Positions 1,025 to 29,378 of a stretch of 43,744 nt of DNA are shown one piece after another. Where the stretch lies: IMG/VR virus record IMGVR_UViG_3300044693_000291, one strand, 5' to 3'. How positions within the stretch are numbered: position 1 is the first letter of the stretch; each line of letters opens with the position of its first letter. The position numbers and the translations under genes were made by a program. Origin of the DNA: a virus. The notes under the pieces are model-generated. The model ran no database searches, was not told the DNA's origin, and worked only from the letters and a program-made list of their open reading frames with translations.

Positions 1025-1081
1025 AATATTTGCATTGTATTACGCTGCGTATTACATTTGCTATACAAACACACCAAAATG
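1025..1081 (+). promoter_or_regulatory. Promoter-operator-leader module, copy A (Bacteroidota-type TTTG / TAnnTTTG promoter with two GTA(A/T)TAC half-sites)
   Basis: aaatatTTTGcattGTATTACGctgCGTATTACATTTGctatacaaacacaccaaaATG. TTTG at 1029-1032 and TACATTTG at 1053-1060 give a 20-nt spacer. The conserved leader ends at ATG 1079. Confidence 0.6.
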
Positions 1082-1312
1082 ACAATAGCCGAACAAATTG
1101 CCAAAATAGAAGCCGAGATACAAGTTTGCGATAATAATATGCAGCGCATACTAAGGATGGAGGGCTGTGCAATACCGGAACAGCTTACTGGCTCGTATAA
1201 AAAAGAATACGAAACAGAATTCGGCACCAGAGCAGTACTTCAGAATTATATAACGCGCATAGAATGCATATGTAACAGTGCATTGCGTTACGTGGACGTA
1301 AACTTATCATAA
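1079..1312 (+). CDS. Hypothetical protein (77 aa), plus-strand, operator-controlled
   Basis: The ATG at 1079 closes the conserved leader. The track start at 1058 (MLYKHTKM) is just a translation of the conserved leader, and the same peptide appears at 22408. The gene is followed by a hairpin terminator. I recognised no family. Confidence 0.55.
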   Translation: MTIAEQIAKIEAEIQVCDNNMQRILRMEGCAIPEQLTGSYKKEYETEFGTRAVLQNYITRIECICNSALRYVDVNLS

Positions 1313-1357
1313 TCTAAAAGGGACGGTTCGATCAGATCATCACAAGAACCAAATAGA

Positions 1358-1385
1358 AGGCCCGGTATCGCCCCGGGCCTTATTT
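1358..1385 (+). terminator. Rho-independent-type terminator hairpin
   Basis: AGGCCCGG (1358-1365), loop tatcgcc, CCGGGCCT (1373-1380), followed by TATTT. It sits 46 nt after the stop of 1079..1312. Confidence 0.5.
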
Positions 1386-1411
1386 AACTGTTAAAACCAA
1401 ACAATAATATA

Positions 1412-1723
1412 ATGGCTTACGATTTAAAACTTACCGCCAAACAGCGCGTAGACTTTTACATGGAGGCGCTACAGTGTTTTAAGACACGTTCCGAAGGCCC
1501 CTACGTTTGTAATGTATTAAAATGTCTATGCAGGGATATGTATCCTGAATTAATTCGATACCCGGCGTTTGAGGGGTATGCTAACGAATTTTGTGAATTA
1601 AATTTCCCCGAATTTTATGAGCAGCTTAATGGAGAGTACTCATGGCCCGAGACAGAGGCAGGTAACTTAAAGCGAGTGGCCGCATTGGAGGCTGCAATTG
1701 CATTGGCTAATAAGAATGCTTAG
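1412..1723 (+). CDS. Hypothetical protein (103 aa), plus-strand
   Basis: This ORF has a globular, Cys/aromatic-rich composition (no family recognised). It converges on and overlaps the minus-strand RHH gene by 17 nt. Confidence 0.5.
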   Translation: MAYDLKLTAKQRVDFYMEALQCFKTRSEGPYVCNVLKCLCRDMYPELIRYPAFEGYANEFCELNFPEFYEQLNGEYSWPETEAGNLKRVAALEAAIALANKNA

Positions 1724-1901
1724 ACTGAGTTGCCGGCTGCTGCCGCCGCTGGTAGTATTCTTTAAGGGCCTCCGCCACAATACTCGACTGGCTGGCCCCG
1801 GTTGCATCCGCCTGCGATATTACTTTCTCTTTTATCGCGGGCGGTACGGTAACCTTTATTCTGTTATCATAAGAGTATTTTCCTACTGTTTCCTTCGCCA
1901 T
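1707..1901 (-). CDS. Ribbon-helix-helix (CopG/Arc-like) DNA-binding protein, 64 aa
   Basis: The internal ATG at 1901 forms a TAATG overlap with the stop of the fibre gene. RIKVTVPPAIKEKVISQADATGASQSSIVAEALKEYY fits the strand-helix-helix RHH pattern. The 38 extra N-terminal residues of the track ORF overlap the fibre gene and look non-coding. Confidence 0.5.
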   Translation of the reverse strand: MAKETVGKYSYDNRIKVTVPPAIKEKVISQADATGASQSSIVAEALKEYYQRRQQPATQSKHSY

Positions 1902-27668: not shown

Positions 27669-27699
27669 AGAAAAAATCCCCGAGTAGACACCCGGGGAT
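27669..27699 (-). terminator. Rho-independent-type terminator after the endolysin candidate
   Basis: The minus strand reads ATCCCCG-ggtgtctact-CGGGGAT followed by TTTTTTCTC. Confidence 0.6.
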
Positions 27700-27735
27700 A
27701 ACACCAAAACAATAATTGCTATGAATATTGAAAAA

Positions 27736-28314
27736 CTACTGCCACCATGCTACCAGTGCGTAAGGCAAAACGTCCTGATTATTGGCCGTCATAAGGCTGT
27801 AAACCTTTGGTTGGAACTCGGGCCACTGATCAGGATGAACCGTTTGGCATCCCTCGCTGCTGGTTGTTGTATAGCCGCCTTTGTGCAGGTTAATGGCTAT
27901 ACCTTTAAAAACTTTGTTACCCTCGCCATCGCGCCACACTGGTAAACTCTCGTCCGGAGTGGCCGGCCTGAATGCATCATAGCCGCCATCCGCATGCGTA
28001 GTAATGCCATGTTTACCCTTCTTAAAGAAGTGCAGCCCGGGTATAAGCGTTGCAACCTCTGGTTTAAAACGGCTGGGATCGGTGTTGCCATTAAACGTTT
28101 CATATCCACCCGGGTAAAACAGGCACATACAATCATCGTAGATGCCCCGGTCGTTTTTGCCGGGCACGCCCATTGTATCAAGGTAGTAACCACGGAAGGC
28201 GATTATATAAACCAACTTGCCGCCATATTTGGCAATAACCTTTGCAAGTTGGCTATCTATATCAGCCGGTAATTTTTTGCAGGCCTCTTCTGCTGTGATT
28301 TTGGGTCTATTCAT
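27736..28314 (-). CDS. Endolysin candidate, YkuD-like (L,D-transpeptidase fold) peptidoglycan hydrolase
   Basis: INLHKGGYTTTSSEGCQTV fits the His...Ser-x-Gly-Cys catalytic arrangement of YkuD domains. It has no TM segment and is the last gene of the membrane-protein cassette. Confidence 0.4.
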   Translation of the reverse strand: MNRPKITAEEACKKLPADIDSQLAKVIAKYGGKLVYIIAFRGYYLDTMGVPGKNDRGIYDDCMCLFYPGGYETFNGNTDPSRFKPEVATLIPGLHFFKKGKHGITTHADGGYDAFRPATPDESLPVWRDGEGNKVFKGIAINLHKGGYTTTSSEGCQTVHPDQWPEFQPKVYSLMTANNQDVLPYALVAWWQ

Positions 28315-28678
28315 ATATGTAGAATTGCAGCACTACGTAGGTAATGCAGGTTAAAAAGAATACAGCCGGGTAAACATCCCCCCATACTCTATCAATAACA
28401 CTGCCCTGCGGGTCCTCCGGGTGCGTATAAAACAACGCTCGGCGTGGGGTACGGAAGTAATTAAGCGCTGTGTTAAACAGCGGCAGGTGCAATACCAGAA
28501 GCGCAGCAACCACCAGCCAGCTACGGCACAACCACCATGCGTTAAGGGCAACTGTGGCATAATACAGTAACCATACGGTATGATTTATTCGCTTCTGCTG
28601 TTTATCGAAACGGTACGCCTGATACTTGCCTACGGCAATATTAAGCACCCAAAAAAATATCTGTATTAGTAAAATCAT
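28307..28678 (-). CDS. Multi-pass membrane protein (123 aa, about 4 TM)
   Basis: The hydrophobic segments are ILLIQIFFWVLNIAV, VWLLYYATVALNAWWL, WLVVAALLVLHLPLF and VYPAVFFLTCITYVVL. Confidence 0.55.
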   Translation of the reverse strand: MILLIQIFFWVLNIAVGKYQAYRFDKQQKRINHTVWLLYYATVALNAWWLCRSWLVVAALLVLHLPLFNTALNYFRTPRRALFYTHPEDPQGSVIDRVWGDVYPAVFFLTCITYVVLQFYIYE

Positions 28679-28773
28679 ATATTGATAAGTTTAAGCCAAA
28701 AGGCTAATATAAGCATCCCAGTGGCAATAATCGCCAAGTATGTAAGGATGATTTTTTTGAAGTCAATTTTCAT
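28675..28773 (-). CDS. Micro-ORF (32 aa), single-pass membrane peptide
   Basis: MKIDFKKIILTYLAIIATGMLILAFWLKLINI. It has ATGA overlaps at both ends (28770-28773 and 28675-28678). It falls below the track threshold. Confidence 0.45.
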   Translation of the reverse strand: MKIDFKKIILTYLAIIATGMLILAFWLKLINI

Positions 28774-29312
28774 AACTTAATACCGGGTTTGAATTTTAAA
28801 AAAACAGTTACTGCCAGTATTACCACTATGATGCCAATCAACGACCAAAACCGTATAATCCACTTATTAGCTGCCGCCCTTGCATCATTTTCCTTCGCCC
28901 GTGCATCCTGCACCGCTGCCTCTTTTCCAGCAATTGCTCTCTGGCATTCGTTAAGCAATCTGTTATCGCCGTTAATGGTGCGCGTAACTGTATCGTGTAC
29001 AGTTTGCAGCTTAAGCGTGCGCTCCTTTATACGGATAGTATCGATACGATTAAGCGTGTCCCGCAACACGGTTGTATCGTATCCAATAAGCAAATGAGTA
29101 ATAGTATCGCCGGGTTTATATACATAGTTGGTATCGATTTTAACCGGGTTACACTCCAGCCATTTATCTACCACCTGCTGCGTTTTGTCGTTGCTTTTAA
29201 GCACTTGTTTTACCGGGTTGCAGCAGTAGAAGGTAATAACGAATATGGCACCCCATATCCTGTATTGCGTTGCCCGGGGGCCTGCGCTACAAAGAATTTC
29301 GATTAGTTTCAT
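28770..29312 (-). CDS. Spanin-like protein (180 aa): N-terminal and C-terminal hydrophobic anchors flanking a coiled coil
   Basis: The N-terminal anchor is IWGAIFVITFYCC and the C-terminal TM is WIIRFWSLIGIIVVILAVTVFL. The central segment is helical (CQRAIAGKEAAVQDARAKENDARAAANK). Confidence 0.4.
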   Translation of the reverse strand: MKLIEILCSAGPRATQYRIWGAIFVITFYCCNPVKQVLKSNDKTQQVVDKWLECNPVKIDTNYVYKPGDTITHLLIGYDTTVLRDTLNRIDTIRIKERTLKLQTVHDTVTRTINGDNRLLNECQRAIAGKEAAVQDARAKENDARAAANKWIIRFWSLIGIIVVILAVTVFLKFKPGIKL

Positions 29313-29378
29313 GGTTTTGGTGTTTAATATAGTTTACCCAACGAATGTAATACACTTTGTAATACCAGCAAAAAAAAA
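29310..29378 (-). promoter_or_regulatory. Degenerate promoter-operator module, copy G
   Basis: In gene orientation: tttttTTTGctgGTATTACaaagtGTATTACATTCGttgggtaaactatattaaacaccaaaaccATG. The -7 element is degenerate (TACATTCG) and the leader is longer. Confidence 0.35.

Follow-up and report, generated by a model that had tools for sequence, protein, structure and literature searches.

Seven dispersed promoter modules in the genome of an uncultured Bacteroidota myovirus may carry an Arc-like operator

The window, that is, the whole stretch of 43,744 nucleotides analysed here, is the complete and circular 43.6-kb genome of an uncultured myovirus, and its seven dispersed promoter modules are best read, with a probability of roughly 0.5, as early promoters with an Arc-like operator through which a phage dimer of the ribbon-helix-helix (RHH) kind would shut all of them off together. 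According to this reading, the host primary-sigma RNA polymerase (Bacteroidota type, -33 TTTG and -7 TAnnTTTG) would read all seven modules, with modules G, F, E, D, and C starting early transcription units and modules A and B starting add-on cassettes that lie antisense in late genes. In each promoter, 7-bp palindromes of the form (C)GTAWTAC(G) are arrayed, the first in the spacer, the second 12 bp downstream over the -7 box and, in some copies, a third 11 bp further, covering the predicted start site. The downstream heptamer doubles as an extended -7 element and the upstream heptamer is an add-on dispensable to the polymerase, the most likely role of the array being that of an operator. In that role, a small phage protein that acts as a dimer, and is most plausibly an RHH protein, may place one dimer on each heptamer along one face of the DNA, and the bound dimers would cover the -7 box and repress rather than activate, leading to early shut-off by negative feedback as by Arc at Pant in phage P22. 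The early timing of the module genes we infer from gene content. The circuit would be of an ordinary kind for phages, here in a little-studied bacterial phylum. The host probably belongs to the Chitinophagaceae, as a Chitinophaga-type soil bacterium; a relative with 69% capsid identity is a prophage in the chromosome of Chitinophaga sp. CC14, and matches of the capsid protein were limited to Bacteroides and Cellulophaga phages.

In gene orientation the seven copies (n = 7) have the consensus TTTG-N3/4-GTAWTAC-N5-GTATTAC-ATTTG-leader-ATG, and all of them are intergenic, in a genome with 2,241 bases (5%) of non-coding DNA, and are oriented towards a gene whose ATG lies 7-29 nt downstream. A preliminary description of this DNA had listed seven copies, and all were present where and on the strand it had placed them. 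Searching the genome for GTAWTAC-N5-GTAWTAC with at most one mismatch gave seven matches, exactly the seven modules, with 0.08 expected from shuffles; equally good matches inside coding regions, which had been named as a possible refutation, did not appear for the pair motif. Single GTAWTAC heptamers occur 19 times; 15 of these sites belong to the modules, and the 4 others fall in coding DNA, roughly as many as expected by chance. The strict promoter pattern TTTG-N18-21-TAnnTTTG matched the genome six times, at modules A, C, D, E, and F and once in coding DNA, so the earlier assignment of the outer elements to the Bacteroidota sigma consensus was upheld (5/6 matches are modules). The 12-mer GTATTACATTTG is exact in five copies, and B (ATTTA) and G (ATTCG) each depart from it by a single base; likewise, the -7 element TAnnTTTG is exactly TACATTTG in A, C, D, E, and F, TACATTTA in B, and TACATTCG in G, and the spacer between TTTG and the -7 element measures 20 nt in five modules and 19 nt in B and G. 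The earlier description is to be corrected in that B and G have N3, not N4, after TTTG, together with deviating -7 boxes. Its two half-sites had also been placed wholly in the spacer, whereas the downstream one reaches into the -7 box (GTAT-TACATTTG). The leaders are conserved, A/C-rich, and without a Shine-Dalgarno sequence, and they show A at -3, -6, and -11/-12.

Copies C to G front the early ORFan region and copies A and B front two antisense add-on cassettes. Module A (1029..1081, plus strand) consists of TTTG at 1029-1032, upstream heptamer GTATTAC at 1037-1043, downstream heptamer at 1049-1055, -7 box TACATTTG at 1053-1060, and a leader of 18 nt before the ATG at 1079; the cassette gene 1079-1312 is driven by this module, which diverges from the prohead protease gene and has orthologues in the related genomes L043, L275, and L278. 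Module B (8981..9031, plus strand) is a weaker copy with TTTG at 8981-8984, N3, GTAATAC at 8988-8994, GTATTAC at 9000-9006, -7 box TACATTTA, and a 17-nt leader to the ATG at 9029, driving an 80-aa gene (9029-9271) that lies antisense between terL and the next late gene. The other modules are on the minus strand. Module C (22385..22437) has TTTG at 22437-22434, GTAATAC at 22429-22423, GTATTAC at 22417-22411, and a -7 box reaching to 22406, and drives a 118-aa gene (22031-22387) whose ATG, at 22387, follows an 18-nt leader identical to that of A. The false N-terminal peptide that the conserved leader had been said to produce for two unrelated genes was recovered, as LLYKHTKM opens the long ORFs of A (at 1058) and C (at 22408). 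In module D (25501..25542), TTTG at 25542-25539, GTAATAC at 25534-25528, GTATTAC at 25522-25516, and a -7 box to 25511 are followed by 7 nt only (TAACACT) before the ATG at 25503, the mRNA being predicted to be leaderless, and this arrangement is unchanged across seven related genomes. Module E (26919..26974) has TTTG at 26974-26971, GTAATAC at 26966-26960, GTATTAC at 26954-26948, a -7 box to 26943, and a 21-nt leader before the ATG at 26921. Module F (27604..27659), with TTTG at 27659-27656, GTATTAC at 27651-27645 and again at 27639-27633, and a -7 box to 27628, possesses a third perfect heptamer, GTAATAC, at 27628-27622 and a 21-nt leader before the ATG at 27606. Module G (29310..29372), a degenerate copy and the first promoter past the tail operon, shows TTTG at 29372-29369, N3, GTATTAC at 29365-29359 and at 29353-29347, the -7-like element TACATTCG, and a 29-nt leader before the ATG at 29312; orthologues occupy this slot in L276, L277, and L279.

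The outer elements appear from their sequence to be a Bacteroidota primary-sigma promoter, the Bacteroides consensus being -33 TTTG / -7 TAnnTTTG (Bayley 2000, summarised in PMC7366714). Modules and such promoters have both boxes in common, 19-20 nt apart, as well as short 5' UTRs and leaders that are rich in A instead of carrying a Shine-Dalgarno sequence; they differ in that the module -7 box is extended to the invariant 12-mer GTATTACATTTG, the first seven bases of which are repeated 12 bp upstream, in the spacer. The two heptamers have to be judged separately. TTTG-N16-GTATTACATTTG was found in more than 100 viral contigs, with an ORF start just downstream in 73 of 99 distinct sites, and the upstream heptamer was present in 2 of these 99 sites and absent from 97. 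The downstream heptamer, previously taken for an operator half-site, therefore seems to be part of an extended -7 box and largely explained by the promoter itself. Furthermore, the heptamer pattern is generic in part: promoter-like sites taken without selection also have G and T at -4 and -3, ahead of the -7 box, and TA behind it.

These data bear on a simpler explanation, according to which both heptamers are read by the host polymerase, by itself or with a general host factor, without any dedicated regulator, extended -7 box and spacer element making up a very strong constitutive early promoter. The wide use of GTATTACATTTG as a -7 variant in viral promoters without an upstream heptamer and the generic G/T and TA positions speak for it, as do AT-rich phages whose upstream unit looks like a -7 box that was copied and has decayed (GTATTACATTTT-GTATTACATTTG in L015 is one case) and the lack of any DNA-binding domain above curated threshold in the window genome. 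We nevertheless consider it unlikely, in view of the behavior of the upstream heptamer. Six related genomes gave 23 orthologous modules, of which 19 have a perfect upstream GTAWTAC next to a variable N4 and N5, and the heptamers are 12 bp apart from start to start in all 23, with a third heptamer at +11 bp in six. The exception is L276, where the upstream heptamer is degenerate in 4 of 5 otherwise conserved promoters; the L276 orthologue of module E is a promoter without upstream heptamer. From this decay it follows that a promoter can do without the upstream heptamer and, taken together with the 97 of 99 comparable promoters that lack it, that the polymerase has no general requirement for it; since the L276 promoters look functional, regulation through it would be at most optional. 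Its symmetry around a free centre base also points to a dimer more than to sigma, whose contact would be asymmetric, and the upstream heptamer recurs before RHH genes. Finally, strong host promoters would be expected to use the upstream heptamer, but host genomes almost never do so: a search of 596 Gb yielded only a handful of Bacteroidota genome matches to the module, which is not a host regulon.

Each GTAWTAC is a palindrome around a free centre base, extended to CGTAWTACG in 5 of the 7 upstream sites. What had been described as inverted copies and direct copies comes down to a single A/T difference at that centre base, and at the orthologous A-slot site it is T in the window and A in L275. 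As every heptamer is its own palindrome and orthologues flip the centre base, the argument from inverted or direct geometry fails. The A-slot promoters of the window, L275, and L043 differ in N4, N5, centre base, leader, and downstream gene, and both heptamers are kept in all three. In the viral collection, N5 is the only heptamer spacing with many promoter-like cases, and the pair at 12-bp spacing also occurs in other phage lineages and before an RHH antitoxin operon. Short palindromic subsites, a fixed spacing of about one turn, and conservation independent of the flanks, as expected of RHH-type operators, are all found in the modules. A regulator-binding role for the heptamers is therefore suggested as the best reading of the comparative data, although operator occupancy and promoter occlusion, claimed from the geometry before, can be proposed only as what such binding would entail.

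The modules act in addition as junctions of exchangeable gene cassettes, a module doubling as a cassette-swap junction because it is repeated. The window and L275 are homologous (88%) up to 1059/1060, where the -7 box of module A ends, and again from 1318, past the stop codon of the replaced gene, and three relatives carry three unrelated genes behind this one A-slot promoter. A GC-rich hairpin just past the first gene of cassette A (1357..1381) marks a point where homology to L275 resumes, and another with a T run (21972..22004, minus strand) follows the single gene of module C and closes that cassette. Intrinsic-terminator hairpins on the minus strand lie directly upstream of module G (29379..29404, 11 pairs and a T run) and of module F (27676..27699, 10 pairs and a T run); none was seen next to modules B, D, or E. 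The B cassette is an insertion, absent from the relatives L044 and L053, and the L276 promoters have their own common N5 (atcgt), which suggests concerted evolution. All these features would be expected if the module were a mobile regulatory cassette homogenised by recombination, in which the heptamers have been kept only because the copies are young. We find this quite improbable as an alternative, because, within genomes as well as between them, the positions that separate or flank the heptamers have changed whereas the heptamer arms have not, and because identical heptamers at identical spacing persist in lineages of 28-49% GC in front of unrelated genes. Recombination accounts for the spread of the modules and not for this pattern of divergence, and it is compatible with the operator reading.

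The PeSL (promoter-early stem-loop) cassettes of T4-type phages (Arbiol et al. 2010, PMC2839356) are, in a partly similar way, built from repeated strong early promoters and terminator hairpins flanking small non-essential ORFs, and there, too, the breakpoints of replacements among closely related phages fall at the cassette. However, the module promoter is of the Bacteroidota class and not sigma-70, the sequences are unrelated, a hairpin adjoins only some module copies, and a palindrome pair is not described for PeSLs. Given the promoter class, and as a sigma-70 promoter scan of the window showed no enrichment, the module is an analogue of PeSL and not a member. An extra conserved block beside the sigma boxes of host-polymerase promoters is also known from Bacteroidota phages of the crAss-like group, in the extended "tripartite" middle-promoter motif (bioRxiv 10.1101/2020.03.07.982082), which differs from the modules in phage family, timing class, and sequence and for which a palindromic repeat is not reported.

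If a phage protein binds the heptamers, it might turn promoters on. The upstream heptamer lies at a spacer position that could hold a class II-type activator, and B and G combine poor -33 and -7 boxes with perfect heptamers, so that one might invoke an activator, or else a phage protein that modifies the polymerase, as in sigma appropriation or through a factor delivered with the virion. This seems very unlikely to us, as five of the seven copies fit the host consensus in full and should need no help to fire, a heptamer over the -7 box is in a repressor-like position, and no sigma, anti-sigma, or polymerase gene was found in the window genome. Still less probable is that the pairs are temperate-phage operators for a lysogeny repressor, comparable to the multi-site system of mycobacteriophage L5. 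L5-type stoperators lie within transcription units and at a distance from promoters, and they are sites for the known immunity repressor of a temperate phage. The sites described here are likewise numerous and dispersed, and a relative is integrated in the Chitinophaga chromosome mentioned above. Against this, every heptamer pair coincides with a promoter and none lies inside a transcription unit, neither integrase nor CI-like repressor nor excisionase was detected in the window genome, and the Chitinophaga prophage lacks the module in the 21 kb sampled; the modules were therefore rejected as stoperators of the L5 type.

Arc of phage P22 is a small RHH protein transcribed from the promoter Pant, which Arc represses. 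Its operator at Pant lies between and over the core promoter boxes and binds two dimers at adjacent subsites about one helical turn apart. The Arc-like operator proposed for the window would differ in serving seven promoters rather than one and in having subsites that are 7-bp perfect palindromes, 12 bp apart, one of which doubles as extended -7 box; moreover, the best candidate binders have no significant similarity to Arc. They are the 59-aa product of module D and the RHH protein at 1707-1901, with CGTAATACGAAACGTATTACATTTG as putative operator DNA. The earlier statement that no recognisable repressor is encoded was too strong in view of these two proteins. The first (25324..25503, minus strand), from a small family confined to the phage group of the window, is conserved, always behind a double-heptamer promoter, in seven genomes. 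It has the RHH-like layout of an extended segment (MVVKTYRV), helix, turn, and helix, and AlphaFold gave coil, helix 25-39, turn, and helix 43-58; no significant match to RHH families came from Pfam, from a search of PDB sequences, from hhalign (probability 1%), or from Foldseek. The second (1707..1901, minus strand), a 64-aa RHH-like protein named "predicted transcriptional regulator" by JGI, has a gene that closes a late-gene block and converges with cassette A, and falls just short of two Pfam cut-offs, with 23.0 bits against 26 for RHH_5 and 20.0 bits against 20.5 for RHH_1. It had been called an RHH protein before; the gene is on the minus strand and the plus-strand ORF 1698-1904 is spurious. 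Its DNA-reading strand varies (RIKVTV, RVRGTV, RITAHV) among phages with identical heptamers, and homologues also occur in relatives without double heptamer in the regions sampled. It also counts against the operator reading that, in the regions compared, no gene was shared by the window and L277 and missing from L276.

The modules had been proposed to form a phage-wide switch for early and accessory genes; a genome-wide promoter set for early and add-on genes is supported, but the module is not private to this phage. Two diverged operons of an RHH antitoxin and a PIN-like toxin (L040 and L026/L042), whose toxins are 47% identical, share GTAATAC-N5-GTATTACATTTG at the promoter with different N5, as would befit the operators through which RHH antitoxins of the VapB/CopG type autoregulate type II toxin-antitoxin operons, and one of the antitoxins is a clear RHH_1 match (E 7.7e-8). 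The phage site differs in being multiplied across the genome, and the phage proteins are no close homologues of these antitoxins (phmmer E 0.012, small local set). It is tempting, though doubtful, to go further and suppose that the 59-aa protein, made from a leaderless module mRNA, binds the GTAWTAC arrays at every early and add-on promoter and times their shut-off, as a minimal genome-wide Arc-like circuit built on a portable part shared with RHH-antitoxin operons. If this were true, a promoter-plus-operator part common to unrelated Bacteroidota phages and RHH-antitoxin operons would constitute a regulatory unit portable by horizontal transfer, and cross-talk could in principle arise at the module between the toxin-antitoxin systems of the host and the early transcription of the phage. 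In an AT-rich phage clade, the operon behind this same promoter type encodes a protein with weak RHH-clan matches.

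Alignment of the seven repeated promoter copies of the window (modules A to G) on the 12-mer GTATTACATTTG placed all of them in one common register, in which TTTG is followed by four bases, the heptamer GTAWTAC, five bases, GTATTAC, ATTTG, a leader and an ATG (at 1079 and 9029 on the plus strand for modules A and B, and at 22387, 25503, 26921, 27606 and 29312 on the minus strand for modules C, D, E, F and G), and all seven copies claimed in the preliminary description were recovered in this way. Modules B and G have three instead of four nucleotides after TTTG, ATTTG is replaced by ATTTA in module B and by ATTCG in module G, and the leader between the -7 box and the ATG measures 7-29 nt. 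Chance matches in coding DNA had been a concern, but scanning the window for GTAWTAC-N5-GTAWTAC with at most one mismatch gave seven matches, which are exactly the modules, where 0.08 were expected. Single GTAWTAC heptamers occur 19 times in the genome, 15 times within modules and four times in coding DNA (about chance), and all seven modules lie inside the 2,241 non-coding bases. The strict Bacteroidota pattern TTTG-N18-21-TAnnTTTG matches six times in the genome and five of these matches are modules, which bears out the assignment of the outer elements to a Bacteroidota promoter. The modules are very probably promoters (probability about 0.85), a reading under which the transcripts of all seven would begin 5-8 nt past TACATTTG.

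A distinction between direct and inverted half-sites had also been proposed; as GTAWTAC is palindromic, the copies differ by one base only, and this centre base flips between orthologous promoters, being T in module A of the window and A in its relative L275. A hairpin or cruciform was considered as the conserved feature and rejected: GTAATACGAAACGTATTAC is foldable, and a terminator scan detects it, but folding is possible only in copies with a centre A in the upstream heptamer and modules A, F and G are unable to form one. The repeated false N-terminus LLYKHTKM proved real for modules A and C, and the conserved leader leads to systematic N-terminal over-extensions (26742-26999, 1058-1312 and 22031-22408). 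It also accounts for disagreement among public gene calls on start codons, as for the module-E gene (85 aa at JGI vs. 59 aa at Logan), so annotators should beware of such false extensions. An Rfam search of the window detected no known RNA motif in the leader.

The two heptamers differ in standing. Scanning viral contigs for TTTG-N16-GTATTACATTTG returned at least 119 loci, and 99 distinct sites were analysed. Of the 99 sites listed, 73 are followed within 4-60 nt by the start of an ORF that opens with ATG and spans 40 aa or more, compared with 26.5% at random positions, and only two of these 99 sites, both known beforehand, carry the upstream heptamer. Unselected promoter-like sites from the same loci display a milder preference for G at -4, T at -3 and TA after TTTG. 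Most of the viral sites listed thus use GTATTACATTTG without an upstream heptamer. The downstream heptamer forms the leading part of an extended -7 box and is largely explained by the promoter, so that of the paired half-sites described earlier only the upstream heptamer stands as the distinctive feature of the module. If this is true, GTATTACATTTG would be a strong extended -7 box of many Bacteroidota phage promoters, with uses in annotating promoters and as a genetic part; no discussion of the 12-mer in this context was found in the papers searched. Other Bacteroidota-type phage contigs (L219, L162 and L141) also have several promoters whose conserved spacer is specific to the lineage (TTTGgtagttCCAAAtattagttgTATnTTTG in the case of L219), and conserved promoter spacers may be a general habit of such phages.

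To follow the upstream heptamer, relatives were obtained via the capsid, helicase, RHH (ribbon-helix-helix) and Rad52-like proteins, yielding the early regions of three further genomes (L276, which is JGI 3300053140, Ga0500573_0000087; L277; and L278 with L279) and fragments (L043, L275 and L281-L283). The 23 modules from six genomes align without gaps, and the consensus obtained without L276 is aaatATTTGG..CGTAwTACGa.aCGTATTACATTTGTa. Nineteen of the 23 have a perfect upstream heptamer, and all four exceptions (ATATTGC, TTAACTT, GCAATAC and GTAAATA), with the E-slot promoter among them, belong to L276, the closest relative in the replication genes (75-85% identity), in which the -33 box and the 12-mer are intact. 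The upstream heptamer is thus selected in most lineages yet dispensable for the promoter, a pattern that would fit an add-on binding site. A less likely rival reading, by which the whole module is purely an extended promoter, agrees with what was found for the downstream heptamer; against it stand the absence of the upstream heptamer from 97 of the 99 sites listed and its decay in L276. Another, by which the heptamers are conserved by copying, has the gene exchange at the module in its favour and, against it, the distribution of information in the alignment without L276, which comes close to its maximum at the heptamer arms and is low in the bases beside and between them (N4 and N5). Less probably still, the heptamers might be an activator site, which the spacer position of the upstream one would suit; five of the seven copies already match the full host consensus. 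Six of the 23 modules, two of them L276 promoters without an upstream heptamer, also have a perfect third heptamer that begins at the G of TTTG. When spacings from N0 to N25 were scanned, N5 alone gave many promoter-like cases. The heptamer-pair motif is present in several other phage lineages of 28-49% GC and was hardly ever matched in 596 Gb of bacterial genomes, where most hits were chance matches in unrelated phyla, and a host regulon was therefore rejected. A metagenome scan with the window-type 25-mer returned only one unrelated lineage (L200, L201).

Of the readings considered, that of the heptamers as an operator is favoured and moderately likely. Under this operator reading, the modules would be early promoters read by the host polymerase, with unstructured, A/C-rich leaders, and the heptamer array would be bound by a small dimeric phage protein which, by analogy with Arc at Pant, could cover the -7 box and shut off the whole promoter set together, while the repeated module would double as a recombination seam. 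This kind of system is well known; what sets the modules apart as a variant is that they occur in Bacteroidota phages, that the -7 heptamer would serve two uses and that the motif is portable. To our knowledge, transcription control in Bacteroidota phages is poorly charted outside crAss-like phages. If the reading is true, a large group of Chitinophagaceae myoviruses, as yet uncultured and with a capsid family of 561 members (E <= 1e-60), would gain a compact early-gene regulon that can be tested, and a tool-poor phylum would gain a 7-bp operator grammar with two small putative repressors from which switches could be built.

That the putative binder is an RHH-type phage protein can be put forward only tentatively. 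No Pfam DNA-binding domains were found in the early ORFs. The first candidate, a 64-aa protein (1707-1901, minus strand), matches RHH_5 (E 6.5e-5) and RHH_1 (6.7e-4) just under the curated cut-offs, is annotated by JGI as a predicted transcriptional regulator, and is encoded convergently with cassette A, an arrangement shared with L043, L275 and L278. Against it speak a reading strand that differs among phages with the same heptamers and homologues in relatives in which no double heptamer was seen. The second candidate is the 59-aa module-D protein (25324-25503, minus strand), whose slot is the most conserved module, with TTTG-taacact-ATGGCA invariant in seven genomes. The 7-nt distance TAACACT between -7 box and ATG (25501-25522) is invariant in the window, L276, L277, L279 and L281-L283 and so predicts a conserved leaderless mRNA; in Bacteroides such mRNAs are rare, 3.7% of 5' UTRs being shorter than 10 nt (PMC7366714). 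The module-D protein belongs to a very small family (about four clusters among 1.8 billion representatives) that is confined to this phage group, and it has a conserved (M/I)V(V/T)(K/R)(T/S)YR(V/I) segment followed by two helices. A single-sequence model was uninformative, and AlphaFold with a five-sequence alignment gave a two-helix hairpin only (pLDDT 84-91 over residues 21-50); the modelled order of elements would be that of an RHH monomer, which is a lead only. Nothing significant was detected for this protein by sequence, profile or fold comparison, including Foldseek. Covariation between its reading strand and the upstream heptamer was considered and is not clear, because the L276-like variant MVTRSYRI (L281) keeps a perfect heptamer at its own promoter. 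Looking for genes present in both the window and L277 and absent from L276 gave no candidate in the regions compared, and all-against-all BLASTP of motif-bearing loci gave no regulator gene common to all lineages.

Independent support for an RHH link may come from outside the phage group. Two diverged RHH-antitoxin/PIN-like toxin operons (L040, 1776-2078, and L026/L042), one on a Cyclobacteriaceae chromosome and one in a Bacteroidota MAG, carry GTAATAC-N5-GTATTACATTTG at the promoter with different N5; their toxins are 47% identical and one of the antitoxins is a clear RHH_1 match. Likewise, weak RHH-clan matches were obtained for a protein whose operon follows the same promoter in a clade of AT-rich phages.

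Gene exchange is seen at the plus-strand cassettes. Window 560-1059 is 88% identical to L275; the match breaks off precisely where the -7 box ends, and homology returns at 1318, just past the stop codon of gene 1; the slot between (1060-1317) holds four unrelated small genes in the window, L275, L043 and L278. Cassette B (8925-9271), consisting of a promoter and an 80-aa gene, is inserted in antisense orientation between terL and the late gene that follows, overlapping the 3' end of terL; it is absent from L044 and L053, where terL abuts the next gene, and its predicted transcript would be antisense to late mRNA. The repeated promoter, if read correctly, would be a seam for cassette exchange as described for the PeSL cassettes of T4-type phages (PMC2839356), alike in exchange behaviour and different in promoter class.

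As its first and last 127 bases are identical and represent an assembly overlap (1-127 = 43618-43744), the window is a complete circular genome of 43,617 bp. It encodes a myovirus gene set (tail sheath, tape measure protein, baseplate hub, small and large terminase, Mu-type portal) as well as a primase-helicase, helicases, a Rad52-like protein and a methyltransferase. Nearly all genes of the genome lie on the minus strand. The ORFan-rich stretch at 29.4-22.0 kb, ahead of the recombination and replication genes, is interspersed with modules G, F, E, D and C, and modules A and B head small plus-strand cassettes, antisense among late genes. Strong terminators lie directly upstream of modules G and F, and hairpins at the end of cassettes A and C. 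The 376-aa ClpP-like prohead protease runs on the minus strand from 975 to 43462 across the circle junction, so the plus-strand ORFs 74-898 and 1698-1904, as shown instead of it in linear ORF lists, are spurious.

The host is a member of the Bacteroidota, probably of the Chitinophagaceae: among isolates, Bacteroides and Cellulophaga phages are the only ones with a match to the capsid protein, and closer relatives include a Puia MAG and a prophage in Chitinophaga sp. CC14. This assignment agrees with the Bacteroidota promoter type (PMC7366714). The prophage (L280; JARBFY010000003.1, 382-403 kb) is integrated, has the same structural module with a capsid 69% identical and Mu-type portal, Mu F and gp36 domains, and points to Chitinophagaceae hosts and temperate relatives. 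A lysogeny operator is a further rival for the heptamers, with which temperate relatives would agree; the 21 kb sampled of this prophage contain no module. In a search for close relatives among isolated phages, 50,697 phage records were queried with 12 kb by megablast and with module F by blastn, and nothing meaningful was returned. All copies of the phage across four samples are 100% identical and hold no information on microdiversity. The source samples are JGI 3300045049, 3300044719 and 3300044651 and SRR23978794.

ARAGORN called a 91-nt tRNA-Tyr with the unusual anticodon ATA (26138-26228, minus strand), overlapping the boundary of two small ORFs, which may be a false positive. A 244-bp intergenic region (11978-12221), upstream of the packaging and late genes, holds six of the 12 GTTACAC heptamers of the genome, on both strands, and further GTTACA/GTAAC copies; it resembles a cluster of iterons and might serve as an origin, as a pac site or in the control of late promoters.
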